The position numbers were made by a program. From the NCBI GenBank assembly GCA_963719315.1, contig CAVRBU010000004.1, positions 352,001-416,000 on the forward strand: a DNA stretch of 64,000 nt. Direction: 5' to 3'. Shown here one piece after another: positions 21,001 to 39,000 of this stretch. Position 1 is the first letter of the stretch. Every line of letters starts with the position of its first letter. The DNA is from an uncultured Planctomycetota bacterium. Its GTDB lineage: Bacteria > Planctomycetota > Planctomycetia > Pirellulales > Lacipirellulaceae.

Positions 21001-24000
21001 CCCACGATCAGCGTAGCCGCGACGCGCGATTTTCGATCCTTCGAGCGACTGGAAAATGCATTTCTGCCGTTCAATCGCAATGGCGTGCTATTTCCACGGA
21101 AAATCGGCGGCAAGTTCATGATGCTGAGCCGACCGAGCGATGACGGCCATACTCCGTTTGGCGACATCTATTTGAGTCAAAGCCCAGACATGTGCCATTG
21201 GGGCATGCATCGTTTGGTGATGCGGCGAGGCGGCTGCGACGTTGGACAGTGGTGGCAGCGGACCAAGGTCGGCGCCGGTCCCATCCCAATCGAAACAGCC
21301 GACGGCTGGCTCATGATTTATCACGGCGTGATGGACACTTGCAATGGATTCGTCTACAGCATGGGGGCCGCACTATTGAATCTCGACGAGCCGTGGCGCG
21401 TGCTGTATCGCACGAATCAGCACATTTTAACGCCGGAGGCCGATTACGAAGTGTCAGGCCACGTGCCGAATGTCGTTTTCCCGTGTGCGGCGTTACACGA
21501 TGCGGCGGCCGATCGCCTGGCCATTTATTATGGTGCGGCCGACACTTCGTGCTGTCTGGCTTACGCCCACCTGGGTGAATTGGTCGCATTCGTCAAAGAG
21601 AACTCGCAGGTGTTCTAGCGACGGAGAGATTCGCTTCTCATCGTGGGCCGCGGGGAGTTCAGAGCGTGAACTTAACGAGACTCGACCTGGCGATTATTGC
21701 GATTTACTTCGCGGTCACACTTCTTGCGGGTTTTTGGATTTCGCGGCGAGCCTCACGCAGCCTGCGCAATTATTTTCTCGGCGGCAACGCCGTGCCGTGG
21801 TACGCGCTGGGGCTTTCGAATGCCTCCGGCATGTTCGATGTGAGCGGCACCATGCTGATGGTCGCGTGGATGTTTGTCTACGGGCTCAAAAGCGTCTGGC
21901 TGCCGTGGATGTGGCCGGTTTTCAATCAGGTGTTCATGATGGTCTTCCTTTCTACCTGGCTCCGCAGGTCGGGAGTAATGACCGGCGCCGAATGGATCCG
22001 CTTTCGATTCGGCGATGGCCCTGGTGCACATTTGTCGCATCTGATTGTCGTAATGTATGCGATGCTGATAGTGATTGGCTTTTTGGCGTACGGCTTTGTC
22101 GGGATCGGAAAATTCGCGGCCACCATGCTCCCCTGGCATCTCGCCGCCGATTCTTACGTCAACGACAACTTGTACGGTCTGATTATTACGGCGATTACGA
22201 CAATTTATGTCGTCAAGGGGGGCATGCTGAGCGTCGTATTCACGGAGGTCCTTCAATTCTTCGTGATGACGGTCGCTTGCGTGTGGATCGGCATTATAGC
22301 GATCGAGCGCGTGTCGCCCGAACTGCTGGCCACGAAGGTGCCGGCCGGCTGGGACAGCATTTTTTTTGGCCGCACTCTCGATCTCAACTGGAGTGGCATA
22401 TTCGAGGCGGCCAATGCACAGATAAAGGCGGACAAGTGGGAATATTTTTCCGCGTTTTGGGTCATCTTGCTGGTCAAAGGCTGGCTGCAAAGCATGGCCG
22501 GGCCGCGGCCGGACTACGACATGCAGCGAGTGCTTTCGGCTCGCACGCCTAGCGAGGCGGCCAAAATGAGCTGTCTAGTCAACATTGTCTTGCTGATTCC
22601 CCGTTACATGCTGATTACGGGCCTCACGGTGCTCGCCCTCGCGTTTTTCACCGACCAGTTGACGCCGCGCGACGGTGCGGTGGACTTTGAAAAAATCCTG
22701 CCGCTGGTGATGCGCGAGTTCGTGCGGCCGGGTTTGCTCGGGCTAATGATCGCGGCACTATTGGCGGCGTTCATGTCCACGTATGCCGCGACCGTAAACG
22801 CCGCGCCCGCGTACATCGTAAACGATATTTACAAGCGCTATCTCAACCCGAACGCACCCGAGAAAACATATATTCGCATGAGCTATGCGACGTCGATCAT
22901 CGTGGTGTTGATCGGTACGGCGTTCGGGTTCGCTTCGACGTCGCTCAACAGTATCGTGGAATGGATCGTGACCGCCCTCTACGGCGGTTATACCGCGTCC
23001 AACGTATTAAAATGGTACTGGTGGCGATTCAACAGTTATGGTTACTTCGGCGGTATGGTGACCGGCCTCGTGGCGATGGCGATCGTACCTCATTTCTTCC
23101 CGAAACTGGCGGTGATTTACAATTTCCCACTGATATTAGCCATTTCGCTGGTCGGTTGCGTCGCGGTCAGCCTGCTGACGCCGCCCGACGACGTTGACGT
23201 ACTCAAACAATTCTATCTCCAAGTGCGACCTTGGGGCTTCTGGCGGCCGATTCATGACTTGCTTGTCGCCGAAAATCCTCGGGTTGAGGCAAACAAGGCG
23301 TTCGGCCGCGATATGATCAATGTAGTGATCGGGATTGTCTGGCAAACGGCGCTCACGACGACCGGCATCTATCTTGTAACTCAAGATCACTACCGCTTGA
23401 TGTGGTCGCTCGTCCTGGTGGCGATCACTTCGGCATGGTTGAAATTCAACTGGTATAACAAGCTGGAAGAATACCCCAGCGGCTTTACGCCGGTTGGAGC
23501 ACAGGCGGAAGTCTAATCGAGAAATCCATGTCCAGGCATTGTTTTGCCGTTGTTTTCCTGTTGTTCGGCGGCGTCTGGTGTGCAGCGCAGCCCCAAGCTG
23601 GCGCAAGCCAACTTTATTACTCGCCGGGGCGACAAACTTTTCGACGGGAAGCGCGAGTTTCGCTTCATCTCGTTCAACATTCCGAACTTGATGGTCATCG
23701 AAGACGCGTACGAATTCACCAAGCCCAATCCGTGGCGCTGGCCGGATGAATTTGAGATCGAAGACGCTCTCGAATCGGTCCGTCAGATGGGCGGCCAGGT
23801 CGTGCGAACGTATGTCCTAAGCGTGTACCGGGAAGGCTCCGACATGGGCGAGTGCGTGCATGTGCGAAGGCCGGGCGAATTCAATGAGGAAGGGTTTCGC
23901 GCGCTCGACAAAGTGATTGATGTCGCCCGGCGAAAAGGAATTCGCGTCATTATTCCGTTTGTCGATCAAGCCAAGTGGTGGGGCGGTATCGGCGAATACG

Positions 24001-36000: not shown

Positions 36001-39000
36001 GATTTCTTTAAACCTCGCGGATAACTGGGGAAACGTCCCATGGATTCCTCCGTCTTCGGCCTCGGATCGACCGGCGCCGACGAATTGATGGCGCGTCGCC
36101 CCGATCATGAACCGCCCGAGTTCGATATCACGGCGATGGTCGATCTGGTGTTCATGATGAACATCTACTTTCTTGTGACGTTTGTGACCGTGGCGATGGG
36201 CGGGCTGAACCTGCCGTCGGCAACGCACGTCGCCGCGCTCGATGGAGATACGGCCGTCATCCTCTCCCTCGTGCGGAGCCTCGATGGAAAGTCGGTGTCG
36301 GTCTACCTGGGCGACGGCACCGAAAGCGAAGCGATCAACGATCCGGCTCAGCAAGAACAGCGAATTCAAGCGGCGGTCGAGCAAGGCCTTGCGGAGGGCA
36401 AGAAGGCCGTGCTGCTCAAGGCGGAAAAGAAGGTGCGGCTGGCGGACTTGTTTCGCGTGGCGACGGCCGCGACCGTGGAAGGTGTAAAGCTCCACGTGGC
36501 CGTGCTGGAGAAGGACAAGTGACAAAGATCACCTTCGCATGTCGGTACTGCGGCAAGAAGCTGTCGGCGTCGGAGACGAGTGCCGGCCGGGAGAAGACGT
36601 GCCCTAACTGCCGTGCGCGGGTGGTAGTTCCGACGCCGGAAGCCGCGGCTCAAAAGACCGCGACGGGCGAGACGAAGCCCCGACAGGCCGCCGACCATCC
36701 AGTTCTGATGATGGGCCGCCGTCCGGAGCATAAAGACCTGATCGACATGACGGCGATGGTCGACATCGTATTCTTTTTGTTGATTTTCTTTCTGGTCACG
36801 TCGCTGCAGTCGATCGAGGCCGTGATTGATCTGCCGGCCCCGCAAATTCCGGCGAGCGCGCCCGATAGCGTGCAGGCGGTGCCCGATATCGCCAACGATC
36901 CGAATTACGTGGTTGTGACGATCGACGACAACGACGCGGTGGATGTCGACGGCGAGGAAGCGATTGGCGAGCAGGACCTGCGTGCGAAACTCCGCGCCGC
37001 GCACCAGGAACACGACAAGGATGGGATGATGATCAACGGCTCGGCCGATTCGACGCACGGCAAATTCGTGATGGTTCTCGATGCCGGGGCCAGCGCGGGA
37101 ATGACGCAGATCCTGTTCTCTGTGCCCCGCACCGACGAGGCGTCCACCGGGGGCTAACCCCCGAATTCCGACAGGCAGCCGAAAAGCGGGGCAGACATTC
37201 TCCTCAGCAAAGCCGCTAGAAAACCACCCGCCCACCGATTGTATTTTCCGCCCCAGTCGGTAAGATGTCGGCTTCGTCAACTCGCCAATGTTCATCATCG
37301 AAGTCGACACCAATATGAGGTCGTGCCATGTCGAGGCGCACAATGCTGTTTCTGGCTCACTGCACGAGCCGTAAGGCGCGCGTGGATCGCCGCGCGACGA
37401 AGCGGCCCGGCCGCCGGCTTCGGTTCGAGCCGCTCGAAGACCGCCGCGTGTTGGCGACGATTACGGTAACGAGTCTGAATGATGCAGCAGTCACCGGCCC
37501 CAACAGGCGCCGGGCACACTGCGGCAAGCAATTTATGACGCCAATGCGTTGCCCAACGCTGACGTGATCGAGTTCGCTCCTAACCTGAGCGGCAACGTTA
37601 GTTTGTCCGTGATGGACGATACGGCAGCAGGCAGCTCGGCTCTGTTGATCGCGACGCCGATAACGATTCGCGGCAACGCGAACGGCATCACGATCGCCCG
37701 CGACTCGGCGGCGGTCGAGATGCGGCTGTTTCGCGTCACGGCAGCCGGGGATCTGACGTTAGAAACGATTTCGCTCACGGGTGGAATCGTGCGCGGCATG
37801 GATGCCACGTTGCCCGATCAAGAGGGTGGAAGCAGCCGGGGCGGCGCCGTGCTGAACGAGGGCAAACTGCAAATCGCGGCGAGCACGATTTACGCGAATC
37901 AGGCAATCGGGGGCAACGGTGGTGTGCTTGGGCGGGGCGGCGCCGGCCTGGGCGGAGCCGTTTACAATGACGTAGGGATACTCTCGATATCCAGTTCTAC
38001 GTTCTCGGGCAACGCCGTCATCAGCGGTTCGGGATCAACGACACCCAGCAGCTTCGGCGGAGCGATCTACTCAAAGAATGGGTCGCTCTCGGTTCACAAC
38101 GTCACGATCACCAACAGCACAGCATCGACGGGGCGCGGAATATACATGTTGGCCCAGGAAGGCACGGCGTCGGCCGATATTCAGAGCACGATTATTGGCC
38201 AGAGCGATTTGACGGCTCAGGCCCGTGAATTCCTGACCGCGCTCGATACAAACGGTCAGTTCATCATCACGGGAGCGAACAACTTGATCCGGTCACAGGG
38301 AGACTTCCAGTCGATAACGTATTCCACGGACGACCCATTGCTCGGTCCACTCGCAGCCAACGGCGGACCGACGCTCACGCATGCCGTGGGGGCCGATAGC
38401 CCAACGATCGACCACGGAAATAATGCGCAAAGTTTCGCGCACGATCAACGCGGCGCCGGCTACTCGCGCGTTGTCGGCGTCGCGGCCGATATCGGGGCCT
38501 ACGAACTGCAAACGGACGTCGCCCCGTCGCTGCTGGGCGATTACAACGGCAACCACATTGTAGATGCCGCCGATTACGTGCTGTGGCGGAAGACGCTCAA
38601 CACGAGTGTGCCGCAATACTCCGGCGCCGATGGCAGCGGGGATGGCACGATAGATGAAGCCGATTTCGGCGTTTGGCGCGAGCACTTCGGTGCGACGTCA
38701 CCACCCGGCGCAGCGGCTTCGTCGTCGTTGAGCGCATCGGTGATTGGATCCGATTTGGGCGTGACGCAGAATTCGCCGCGATTCGCTTCCGAGGCAATGG
38801 CAATTGCGGCGGCGCCGGATGCGGTTTTTATCGACTCAGTCCTGGCTGCCGGCGTGAGTGTCACGGTGAACAACCGGCGTGGTGCGAGGCCGAATCGCGG
38901 TGCGAATTTCGCGTCAACGAGCCGCGGCAACCTGGCTCTCGCGGAGCTATCACCAGCGACCCATCGAAGTCGCGCCCGCGGCGATGCATCTTTCGTGCCT

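Follow-up and report, generated by a model that had tools for sequence, protein, structure and literature searches.

The DUF1559 proteins form the largest orphan family of their phylum, and the locus described here raises the question of what one of them, encoded next to a small lipoprotein (LIP) among mannan-degrading enzymes, does for a soil-dwelling planctomycete lacking outer-membrane importers of the TonB type. The window, that is the whole stretch of DNA analysed, comprises 64,000 nucleotides of an uncultured Planctomycetota bacterium. Its positions 19282-34988 are a mannan utilisation locus, listed here with the genes behind it:

19282..20382, minus strand: LacI-family regulator (PF00356 LacI plus Peripla_BP_3), divergent from the locus
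20557..21618, plus strand: GH130 beta-1,4-mannooligosaccharide phosphorylase (PF04041, 230.8 bits)
21666..23516, plus strand: SSS sodium:solute symporter, the inner-membrane uptake step (PF00474, 113 bits)
23544..26621, plus strand: GH5 enzyme, 1025 aa (PF00150, 34.9 bits)
26947..28143, plus strand: exported PEP-CTERM protein, candidate surface binder (PF07589, 23.4 bits)
28183..29784, plus strand: PEP-CTERM paralogue with dockerin-like repeat and PEP-CTERM-like tail (47% identity to the preceding protein)
30023..31123, plus strand: pilin-like protein of the DUF1559 family, 366 aa, with a prepilin leader and an H-X9-DG C-terminus
31147..31623, plus strand: LIP, lipoprotein of 158 aa (lipobox VAG-C; beta-sandwich in the AF2 model)
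31627..33138, plus strand: GH113 mannanase (PF22612, 57.9 bits)
33065..34988, plus strand: CBM35-GH26 mannanase (PF16990 and PF02156 matched in two different frames, over positions 2-118 and 120-296)
35377..36024, plus strand: ExbB, a neighbour and no conserved part of the locus
36040..36522, plus strand: ExbD, likewise a neighbour only
36519..37157, plus strand: second ExbD, likewise a neighbour only

The gene order from GH5 to ExbB-ExbD-ExbD on the plus strand, given in the genome-wide survey's note, was confirmed by profile searches and translation, as was the mannan utilisation setting (LacI, GH130, SSS, GH5, GH113 and GH26 families); the locus extends further left than first described, by the LacI, GH130 and SSS genes. 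The 23 nt reported from the DUF1559 stop (31123) to the LIP start (31147) were found again. GH113 carries a dockerin-like and PEP-CTERM-like tail, as judged by translation and similarity, and the C-terminal ~90 aa of the 28183-29784 protein are common to flanking proteins of other DUF1559-LIP loci. The closest atlas clusters of the 26947-28143 protein are PEP-CTERM proteins, a few of them with CBM_4_9 on 17-43% of their members, which is a lead only. The GH26 reading frame is broken by one frameshift near 34050; the alignment to an orthologue continues through the shift at residue 292, and the frame is unbroken in two orthologous loci (L031 and L033). Many frameshifts occur throughout the assembly. 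Within the locus, sequences resembling promoters and terminators were no more frequent than expected by chance, and any operon structure is putative.

The DUF1559-LIP pair is retained inside the mannan locus in at least seven other MAGs. The order SSS, GH5, two PEP-CTERM genes, DUF1559, LIP, GH113 and GH26 is kept in L031-L035 and partly in L036, L037 and L039; across these orthologous loci DUF1559 is 36-70%, LIP 41-67% and SSS 50-79% identical, and GH5 is 62-81% identical in L031-L035. The ExbB-ExbD-ExbD motor, which the survey had placed in the locus, did not hold its place: it begins 389 nt behind GH26, searches of 10 kb downstream of the orthologous loci gave no ExbB or ExbD match, and ExbD occurs at only four places in the genome. 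For import by ExbB-ExbD-TonB, neither a conserved linkage of the motor nor a TonB_C match in the genome was found. Plug and the TonB-dependent barrel were likewise without a match in the whole assembly (completeness 90.7%), in agreement with the earlier description of the system as TonB-receptor-free. The genome does encode six secretins, prepilin peptidases (A24) and two PilT-family ATPases above the curated cut-off.

In its model the DUF1559 protein probably resembles an oversized type IV pilin rather than a solute-binding protein. It matches PF07596 (SBP_bac_10) at 166.3 bits against a cut-off of 23.3 and the H-X9-DG model TIGR04294 at 38.9 bits against 19. Its leader is a class III signal peptide with an N-methylation motif (PF07963 N_methyl, 33.3 bits, cut-off 21.2; TIGR02532, 27.1 bits, cut-off 16.3), with the processing site between ...SSSG and FTLVELLVVIAIIG and the residues G-1, F+1 and E+5; the N-terminus matches GspG-type pseudopilins. 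The survey had found that DUF1559 alone folds poorly (pLDDT 59), but a new alignment gave an AF2 model of residues 35-366 with pLDDT 84.3 and pTM 0.88, in which helix 2-32 lies against a head built on a beta-sheet. Of the 20 VIA rows for this model, 18 are type IV pilins or pseudopilins, though the matches are weak (Z 2.0-4.1), and the best Foldseek match is also weak (E 5.2). No two-lobed periplasmic binding protein fold was seen among the 12 Foldseek and 20 VIA rows, lists that do not exclude one, and no solved relative of the head was found by sequence. The prepilin leader and, in the model, the long N-terminal helix on a beta-sheet head recall type IV pilins and pseudopilins, especially minor or modular ones (GspG/PulG, EpsG, ComP, PilV, PilX, GspK), whereas DUF1559 differs in its head of ~300 residues, two to three times larger, in the H-X9-DG end, in having 50-100 paralogues in each genome, dispersed over catabolic loci, and in the dedicated lipoprotein partner.

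LIP is a lipobox protein with a predicted beta-sandwich of the transthyretin/CarboxypepD_reg-like type. Its signal peptide ends in the lipobox FVAG-C, the Cys of which is invariant in 44 of 44 aligned family rows and is followed by Gly in at least 90%, as in bacterial lipoproteins; no Pfam family was matched at E<=0.01, so that the earlier description as a lipoprotein of no known family stands. The proposed beta-sandwich is consistent with an all-beta AF2 model (pLDDT 88.3) and its VIA matches, the best of which is the SusC N-terminal extension (NTE) domain 9hfj_A (Z 7.4, rmsd 2.7, 80 aligned), a middling match to a common sandwich fold. DUF3823 proteins (Z 7.4, 7.0 and 5.3) and the transthyretin-like domain of carboxypeptidase D (Z 5.8, rated middling) were also recovered, profile-to-PDB searches matched NOMO2 (E 0.0022) and transthyretin (E 0.024), and the closest named atlas cluster (0.93) is 'carboxypeptidase regulatory-like', 26% of whose members carry PF13620. 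The model resembles, at scores rated middling (Z 5.8-7.4), the seven-stranded sandwich of CarboxypepD_reg/transthyretin-like domains, including the DUF3823 lipoproteins of Bacteroides PULs, but LIP stands by itself as a lipoprotein of 120 residues, and its gene is always found next to one for DUF1559.

This adjacency was counted by running HMMs built for the purpose over the ORFs of all six frames of the assembly (5.93 Mb). All 20 LIP-family ORFs adjoin a DUF1559 ORF, 18 lying directly behind one on the same strand and the other two directly in front; of the 54 DUF1559 ORFs of the genome that bear the C-terminal end of the model, 18 are followed by LIP. The recurrence of the pair about 20 times is therefore sustained, with counts close to but not identical with the 22 of 59 and 15 given before, and the 341 LIP homologues were reproduced. 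In other genomes all 33 distinct LIP loci touch a DUF1559 gene, which is directly upstream in 29 and directly downstream in four, while LIP stands beside 4 of 16 DUF1559 genes. These counts support DUF1559-LIP as a real, conserved two-gene unit, for which no describing paper was found in the literature. The dependence is one-sided, since LIP is always beside DUF1559 and yet only 18/54 and 4/16 DUF1559 genes have LIP; the 'obligate module' of the survey holds from the LIP side and fails from the DUF1559 side. On the paralogue tree, moreover, LIP-linked DUF1559 genes are dispersed (10 changes, compared with 13 in shuffles), and because few members carry LIP and these are not one clade, LIP is not essential to the basic function of the family.

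DUF1559 and LIP are also predicted to form a heterodimer. With independent alignments paired by gene adjacency (A2 and A3, 44 rows each), the complex reached ipSAE 0.82, 0.81 and 0.81 against 0.00 for the best of three controls, with at least 76% shared contacts and partner pLDDT of at least 84; the earlier prediction is thereby repeated, although its 0.90 was not reached. The ipSAE mark is attained by 116 of 157 solved pairs and by 2 of 215 mismatched pairs. In the model a variable rim surrounds a conserved core (DUF1559 G271 and S286-D290 'SENID'; LIP P6 and R47-P48-A49, chain numbering), and the contact surface takes in the conserved residues that directly follow the H-X9-DG hairpin, consistent with the C-terminal binding region proposed before. 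Memory of a solved complex is unlikely because the DUF1559 head has no solved relative by sequence.

The contexts of the other pairs widen the picture. One pair lies inside a ten-gene nucleoside catabolism operon and one inside a glycerophosphodiester operon, against a glycan-specific role; others adjoin a BNR sialidase with SSS and GntR, a GH18 with SSS and ROK (a chitin locus), or an MFS carrier with LacI/GntR. Three of the seven SSS genes lie less than 5 kb from LIP (random 0.29 +/- 0.53; three reached in 2 of 1000 shuffles), and the genome's only cobalamin (B12) riboswitch (92.9 bits) precedes a DUF1559 gene and an exported dockerin/PEP-CTERM protein. In other families sampled, the best-scoring pairs are for the most part isolated, with unrelated neighbours (genes for TPR proteins, housekeeping genes), and association with catabolic loci may be particular to the source lineage. 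Of the survey's interpretation, the conserved pair, the predicted heterodimer, the mannan locus and the absence of TonB are supported, whereas two-way obligate dependence, a link to ExbBD and a glycan-only role are not.

DUF1559, with or without LIP, may well be a substrate-specific nutrient-acquisition accessory built on type IV filament machinery, a reading which we favour tentatively; the place of the pair inside a conserved mannan cluster and other nutrient-use clusters makes such a role testable. Prepilin peptidase would cleave the leader and leave the hydrophobic N-terminal helix, which could anchor the protein in the inner membrane or permit its incorporation into a type IV filament. 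For roughly one paralogue in three, LIP, with a ~10-residue linker from its sandwich to the lipidated Cys, would dock onto the pilin head at its C-terminal face, beside the H-X9-DG hairpin, and each pair would be a substrate- or locus-specific accessory of one nutrient-acquisition cluster. In the mannan cluster the exported PEP-CTERM proteins and the tail-anchored GH113 and GH26 would act outside, the pair would work in the envelope, and SSS and GH130 would complete uptake and breakdown. Most likely, DUF1559 proteins would be exchangeable minor subunits of a retractile type IV filament, which would carry the substrate it has captured (or the binder of that substrate) through a secretin, TonB-dependent receptors being absent from the cell; binding in the cell, the membrane location of LIP, filament assembly and any transport step are what we infer. 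Uptake by way of a pilus and a secretin has a precedent in ComP-type pilins. Passages of two reports state that dextran binds pili-like fibres of planctomycetes, the players being unknown (PMC5394234, PMC12673574). Tuwongella proteins that combine N_methyl with SBP_bac_10 fractionate with membranes (PMC8567305).

It is less probable, though a serious contender, that the DUF1559 proteins serve as pseudopilins, each specific for its cargo, in a machine resembling type II secretion, which would push exported proteins encoded nearby (here the PEP-CTERM proteins, GH113 and GH26) through a secretin, with cargo recognition with or without LIP. The strongest association counted for DUF1559 in this genome is with PEP-CTERM-tailed genes within 1.5 kb, found at 13 of 20 LIP loci (2.4 +/- 1.4 at random) and 18 of 34 LIP-less DUF1559 genes (4.6 +/- 2.1 at random), each count reached in 0 of 500 shuffles, and the same ~90-aa dockerin-like and PEP-CTERM tail recurs on flanking proteins in at least 12 loci. 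The GspG-type N-terminus, PulG and EpsG among the fold matches and a T2SS E/F pair beside one DUF1559-LIP pair point the same way, and the riboswitch and operon contexts fit equally well. Seeger et al. describe type-I or type-II signal peptides in the products of flanking genes (PMC8567305). However, none of 58 DUF1559/LIP loci from other families (some being duplicates of one place) showed a PEP-CTERM-like C-terminus, which argues against a general cargo class; the nucleoside operon has one exported protein among its ten genes, and secretion would leave unexplained the lack of any other B12 or oligosaccharide import route in a TonB-less cell.

It appears improbable that the pair is unrelated to the mannan genes, as a self-contained envelope module (a structural or adhesive minor pilin with a chaperone-like lipoprotein) that duplicates and lands anywhere, the complex prediction then reflecting co-inherited alignments. 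Such a module would suit the heterogeneous neighbours in other families, the weak degradative-enzyme enrichment of the earlier analysis and the lack of detectable paralogue-level co-divergence within the genome (Spearman 0.10; nearest-neighbour agreement 2/15), but the synteny of the pair persists where SSS has diverged to 50% identity, one DUF1559 paralogue is under riboswitch control, SSS and PEP-CTERM genes are enriched near pairs, and the complex controls lie at 0.00. Quite improbable is a periplasmic module in which DUF1559 is never polymerised, its leader being an inner-membrane anchor only, and together with LIP binds solutes and hands them to the adjacent SSS or MFS carriers: these carriers do adjoin pairs, and the short linker would set the sandwich at the membrane surface, where LIP residues 4-6 contact DUF1559 in the model, but the 12 Foldseek and 20 VIA rows showed no binding-protein fold, binding proteins are not known to serve SSS and MFS carriers, and outer-membrane passage would be left unexplained. 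The Pfam name SBP_bac_10 and the term 'solute binding protein', repeated in passages of PMC2754498 and PMC4807772, suit this module, as does the Sulfolobus bindosome, in which sugar-binding proteins tied to nutrient uptake have class III, pilin-type signal peptides and a Bas assembly system (PMC3047682); those archaeal proteins are, however, true ABC-transporter binding proteins, whereas DUF1559 has SSS/MFS and not ABC neighbours.

The proposed SusC/SusD counterpart is retained as an analogy without homology. The genomic logic is alike: two genes, one of them for a lipoprotein, form a cassette with many paralogues, which lies in substrate-specific loci beside CAZymes and local regulators, and twice a DUF1559-LIP pair directly follows ECF sigma/anti-sigma genes; neither protein, however, has the defining folds, as the pair lacks a TonB-dependent barrel, a plug and the SusD-like helical fold. 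A SusC-like transporter (Plug, 22-stranded barrel, TonB box) was rejected, there being no Plug or TonB_dep_Rec match in DUF1559 or LIP, as was a SusD-like lipoprotein (alpha-helical, TPR-like, ~500 residues), LIP having 158 aa, an all-beta model and no Pfam match. In type IVb pili (CofB-CofJ, TcpB-TcpF) a minor pilin binds the product of a separate gene on which the output of the system depends, much as predicted for DUF1559 and LIP; there the partner is not a lipoprotein but an effector secreted in soluble form, and the system is present in a single copy per genome.

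The mannan locus of the window and its neighbouring genes comprise the following features.

19282-20382, minus strand: LacI-family regulator, divergent from the rest of the locus
19.3-37.2 kb, plus strand, in this order: GH130 mannooligosaccharide phosphorylase, sodium:solute symporter (SSS), 1025-aa GH5, two PEP-CTERM paralogues, DUF1559, LIP, GH113, CBM35-GH26, ExbB-ExbD-ExbD
30023-31123, plus strand: DUF1559 pilin-like protein
3' of DUF1559, plus strand: LIP, a 158-aa lipoprotein
28183-29784, 31627-33138 and 33993-34988: reading frames whose products share a ~90-aa C-terminal module, dockerin-like repeat with PEP-CTERM

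The genome-wide survey's note was right on gene order, on the spacing of 23 nt and on the lipobox, and its mannan locus stands, but the left border lies ~4 kb further left than stated there. The two exported paralogous proteins both end in PEP-CTERM tails. The GH26 gene shows one frameshift near 34050 (34040-34060), inside the catalytic domain, and its orthologues at two loci of other MAGs (L031 and L033) are single reading frames. This frameshift is probably an assembly indel, since several other genes of the assembly are also split (DUF1559 in four cases, a G3P oxidase, an FAD oxidoreductase and an MFS carrier). Close LIP relatives are encoded at nine loci of named MAGs (L031-L039). The SSS-GH5-PEP-CTERM-PEP-CTERM-DUF1559-LIP order is kept in five of these (L031-L035), four of which have GH113 and GH26, or GH26 alone, next after LIP; L036, L037 and L039 retain parts of the mannan arrangement and L038 has a different one. 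Among the orthologous mannan loci the order holds though SSS identity falls to 50%. No match to ExbB or ExbD was found in any of the nine loci, and ExbD occurs at only four places in the whole genome; hence the ExbB-ExbD-ExbD genes, earlier counted as part of the system, are dropped from it. A scan for promoter- and terminator-like sites remained at chance level.

The proposed recurrence of the gene pair was confirmed, as the genome has 20 LIP-family ORFs, all adjoining a DUF1559 ORF: 18 are directly 3' of it on the same strand and two directly 5'. In other genomes, 27 LIP loci were obtained by single-sequence search and six further distinct ones by profile search, and DUF1559 is directly upstream of LIP in 29 of these 33 loci and directly downstream in four. 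From the DUF1559 side, LIP accompanies 18 of 54 ORFs in this genome and, in two others, 4 of 16 loci centred on DUF1559. LIP therefore depends on DUF1559 and not the reverse, so the description as an obligate two-protein module holds for LIP but fails for DUF1559. Next to the closest LIP-less paralogues of the window's DUF1559, genes for small membrane proteins take the following position. The 15 LIP-linked members are scattered over a tree of 49 full-length paralogues, with 10 changes against 13 in shuffles; this was a quick tree with many open forks, and 19-22 of 500 shuffles were as low as observed. In a sample of 301 genomes from the phylum, LIP in its small form is restricted to the own genome, the single sampled genome of family f2 and all 15 of family f3, and full-length DUF1559 was restricted in the same way among 61 sampled genomes. 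Weaker LIP-profile matches elsewhere in the phylum are long repeat proteins distant from DUF1559. As candidates for LIP outside its own class, the profile search gave nothing but long proteins of several domains that carry CarboxypepD_reg-like repeats, and none of these is beside DUF1559 (13/13 loci, L070-L083 without L073). At several loci (L023, L025, L029 and others, family f3) a TPR protein of ~435 aa is encoded 3' of DUF1559-LIP on the same strand; perhaps it joins the pair as a third protein in one orthologous group.

The DUF1559 protein has a canonical prepilin leader, PF07596 throughout its body and an H-X9-DG terminus, and its sequence likeness to solved structures is confined to the N-terminal helix. 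The poor model reported earlier was a matter of alignment, since AF2 with a 44-row alignment gave pLDDT 84.3 and pTM 0.88 for residues 35-366. VIA-align of this model returned 20 chains at Z of at least 2 (maximum 4.1), 18 of which are type IV pilins or pseudopilins (PilA4, EpsG, PulG, ComP, PilV, PilX, GspK), and this weakly suggests an enlarged pilin fold. The label of solute-binding protein, which comes from the Pfam name and two papers (PMC2754498, PMC4807772), found no support in the VIA and Foldseek comparisons. The LIP signal peptide ends FVAG|C, with the Cys kept in 44/44 family members, and its AF2 model is a beta-sandwich (pLDDT 88.3). A dextran-transporting SusC, with its N-terminal extension domain, and DUF3823 lipoproteins gave the best VIA rows for LIP (Z 7.4), followed by the transthyretin-like domain of carboxypeptidase D (Z 5.8); the tool rates these values as middling, and therefore a fold class and not a function is named. 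A PilP-like or pilotin-like role of LIP was weighed too and may still apply; no such chain was present among the 50 VIA rows. Neither model had a Foldseek match in the PDB at E<=0.001 (best E for DUF1559, 5.2). The 341 sequence relatives of LIP are all 'hypothetical' and none has Pfam domains; the match to NCBIfam lipo_with_rSAM is sub-threshold (24.8 bits, cut-off 39.8).

For the complex, two alignments of 44 rows each (A2 and A3) were used, with gene adjacency and not contig size as the basis for pairing the rows. The three runs reached ipSAE 0.82, 0.81 and 0.81, with at least 76% shared contacts and partner pLDDT of at least 84, while the best of three controls was 0.00. Of 157 solved complexes, 116 pass the ipSAE mark, as do 2 of 215 mismatched pairs; for user alignments these counts are only rough. 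DUF1559 and LIP are thus predicted to form a heterodimer, the values being the confidence of a model and not measurements. In the model, DUF1559 makes contact at residues 221-227, 247-257, 270-271, 286-295 and 306-312 (chain numbers, add 34), stretches that flank the hairpin formed by H269...D279, and LIP at residues 4-6, 32-34, 41-52, 63-67, 79-84 and 97-100 (add 35). The interface core is conserved (DUF1559 G271 and S286-D290; LIP P6 and R47-P48-A49) and the rim is variable, which would suit paralogue-specific pairing. On average, interface conservation is no higher than that of the remainder in DUF1559 (0.41 vs 0.45, p 0.69) and lower than the rest of the protein in LIP (0.35 vs 0.49, p 0.0009). 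A mirror-tree test over all 44 pairs gave a Pearson value of 0.76 (0/999 permutations as high), driven by orthologues; among the 15 paralogue pairs of this genome no co-divergence signal was found.

Nutrient genes surround several of the genome's 19 further LIP loci. One is a ten-gene co-directional nucleoside catabolism operon (L088:996-10258; C2:379864-389126) with deaminases, three PNP-family phosphorylases, a pyrimidine nucleoside phosphorylase and DeoC, in the middle of which lie an exported PEP-CTERM protein, LIP and then DUF1559. A glycerophosphodiester operon carries G3P oxidase, an exported protein, DUF1559, LIP, a metallophosphoesterase and GDPD. Further loci combine GntR, a BNR sialidase and SSS; GH18, SSS and ROK; LacI or GntR with MFS carriers; and an AraC regulator with phospholipase C. 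In two cases on C2 (L084:3765-7618 and L098:3754-7525), an ECF sigma factor, a putative anti-sigma factor, DUF1559 and LIP follow one another in the same direction, their stop and start codons overlapping, one putative anti-sigma factor having a Laminin_G_3 domain; the layout is that of sigma/anti-sigma genes beside SusC/SusD in Bacteroidota. The remaining LIP loci had no telling neighbours. Three of seven SSS genes are within 5 kb of LIP (random 0.29 +/- 0.53; 2/1000 shuffles as high), though these numbers are small; in the window, SSS and LIP share a cluster and are 7.6 kb apart.

The recurrence of PEP-CTERM tails beside DUF1559 genes and a cobalamin riboswitch had both escaped the survey. 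A simple pattern gave 185 PEP-CTERM-like ORFs in the genome, which has one exosortase gene. A tailed ORF lies within 1.5 kb of 13/20 LIP loci (random 2.4) and of 18/34 LIP-less DUF1559 genes (random 4.6), with 0/500 shuffles as high in both cases. GH113, GH26 and the 482-aa protein share the ~90-aa dockerin-like and PEP-CTERM module with proteins that flank at least 12 other loci. None of 58 loci from other families has such a tail, so the association is a trait of the lineage and not of the module. As a rule, cobalamin riboswitches regulate the transport or synthesis of B12, and the genome search gave only one (92.9 bits):

C3:437168-439782 (L134:669-3282): cobalamin riboswitch (RF00174), DUF1559 and exported protein

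It is directly upstream of a frameshifted DUF1559 gene and the gene of an exported protein (416 aa) that has dockerin-like repeats and ends in a PEP-CTERM tail. In the same locus, an Rfam Acido-Lenti-1 sRNA match (L134:4170-4214, 41.8 bits, gathering 37) lies upstream of a shikimate dehydrogenase gene. We read the DUF1559 family as tied to nutrient acquisition and not to mannan alone.

A whole-assembly search found no TonB-dependent receptor. Six secretins, prepilin peptidases and two PilT-family ATPases above the curated cut-off are encoded, and by this gene content the genome holds what a retractile type IV filament needs. PMC5394234 and PMC12673574 document dextran-binding fibres in other planctomycetes, leaving the components unnamed. 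Owing to the nutrient-locus tie, the filament machinery and these fibres, we consider it slightly more likely that DUF1559 proteins are minor pilins, each specific for a substrate and some joined by a lipoprotein as co-subunit, than that they are pure secretion adaptors. A further-reaching proposal, which we consider rather unlikely, is that they are interchangeable tip subunits of a retractile filament replacing TonB-dependent receptors, each paralogue capturing one nutrient and bringing it into the periplasm through a secretin. A paralogue would act alone, with its LIP, or with a dockerin/PEP-CTERM-tailed surface binder, on mannan fragments at the window locus and on corrinoids, nucleosides or phosphodiesters elsewhere in the genome. 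As a secretion adaptor, DUF1559 would merely place the neighbouring binder on the cell surface, and every genomic context found is equally expected under such placement. The earlier idea of a SusC/SusD counterpart failed every membership test and is useful only for describing the genomic logic.

In many planctomycetes no paralogous family is larger than DUF1559, which is without known function; PMC10632474 gives 68 copies in Planctopirus, two of them essential, and PMC2754498 gives 74 in Rhodopirellula. Polysaccharide import without TonB-dependent receptors in planctomycetes is presented as an open question in PMC12673574. If true, filament uptake would add a third general outer-membrane import route to porins and TonB-dependent transporters. 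It would also explain in molecular terms how fibres take up polysaccharides, as microscopy has shown. No description of a lipoprotein partner of DUF1559 was found in the main texts of the literature searched; signal-peptide genes flanking DUF1559 are mentioned in passing in PMC8567305. The pairing and the riboswitch link were both tested on the present genome. The predicted heterodimer in a conserved mannan locus can be tested by mutation, and together with the riboswitch-controlled paralogue it offers a binding assay and a substrate-specific knockout as entry points.

Elsewhere in the window, a CBM96/PKD protein (15976-18408) is encoded immediately left of the mannan locus, an ECF sigma factor precedes a Ser/Thr kinase of 1411 aa that has WD40 propellers (11355-15590), and a DDE transposase gene is located at 6858-8279.
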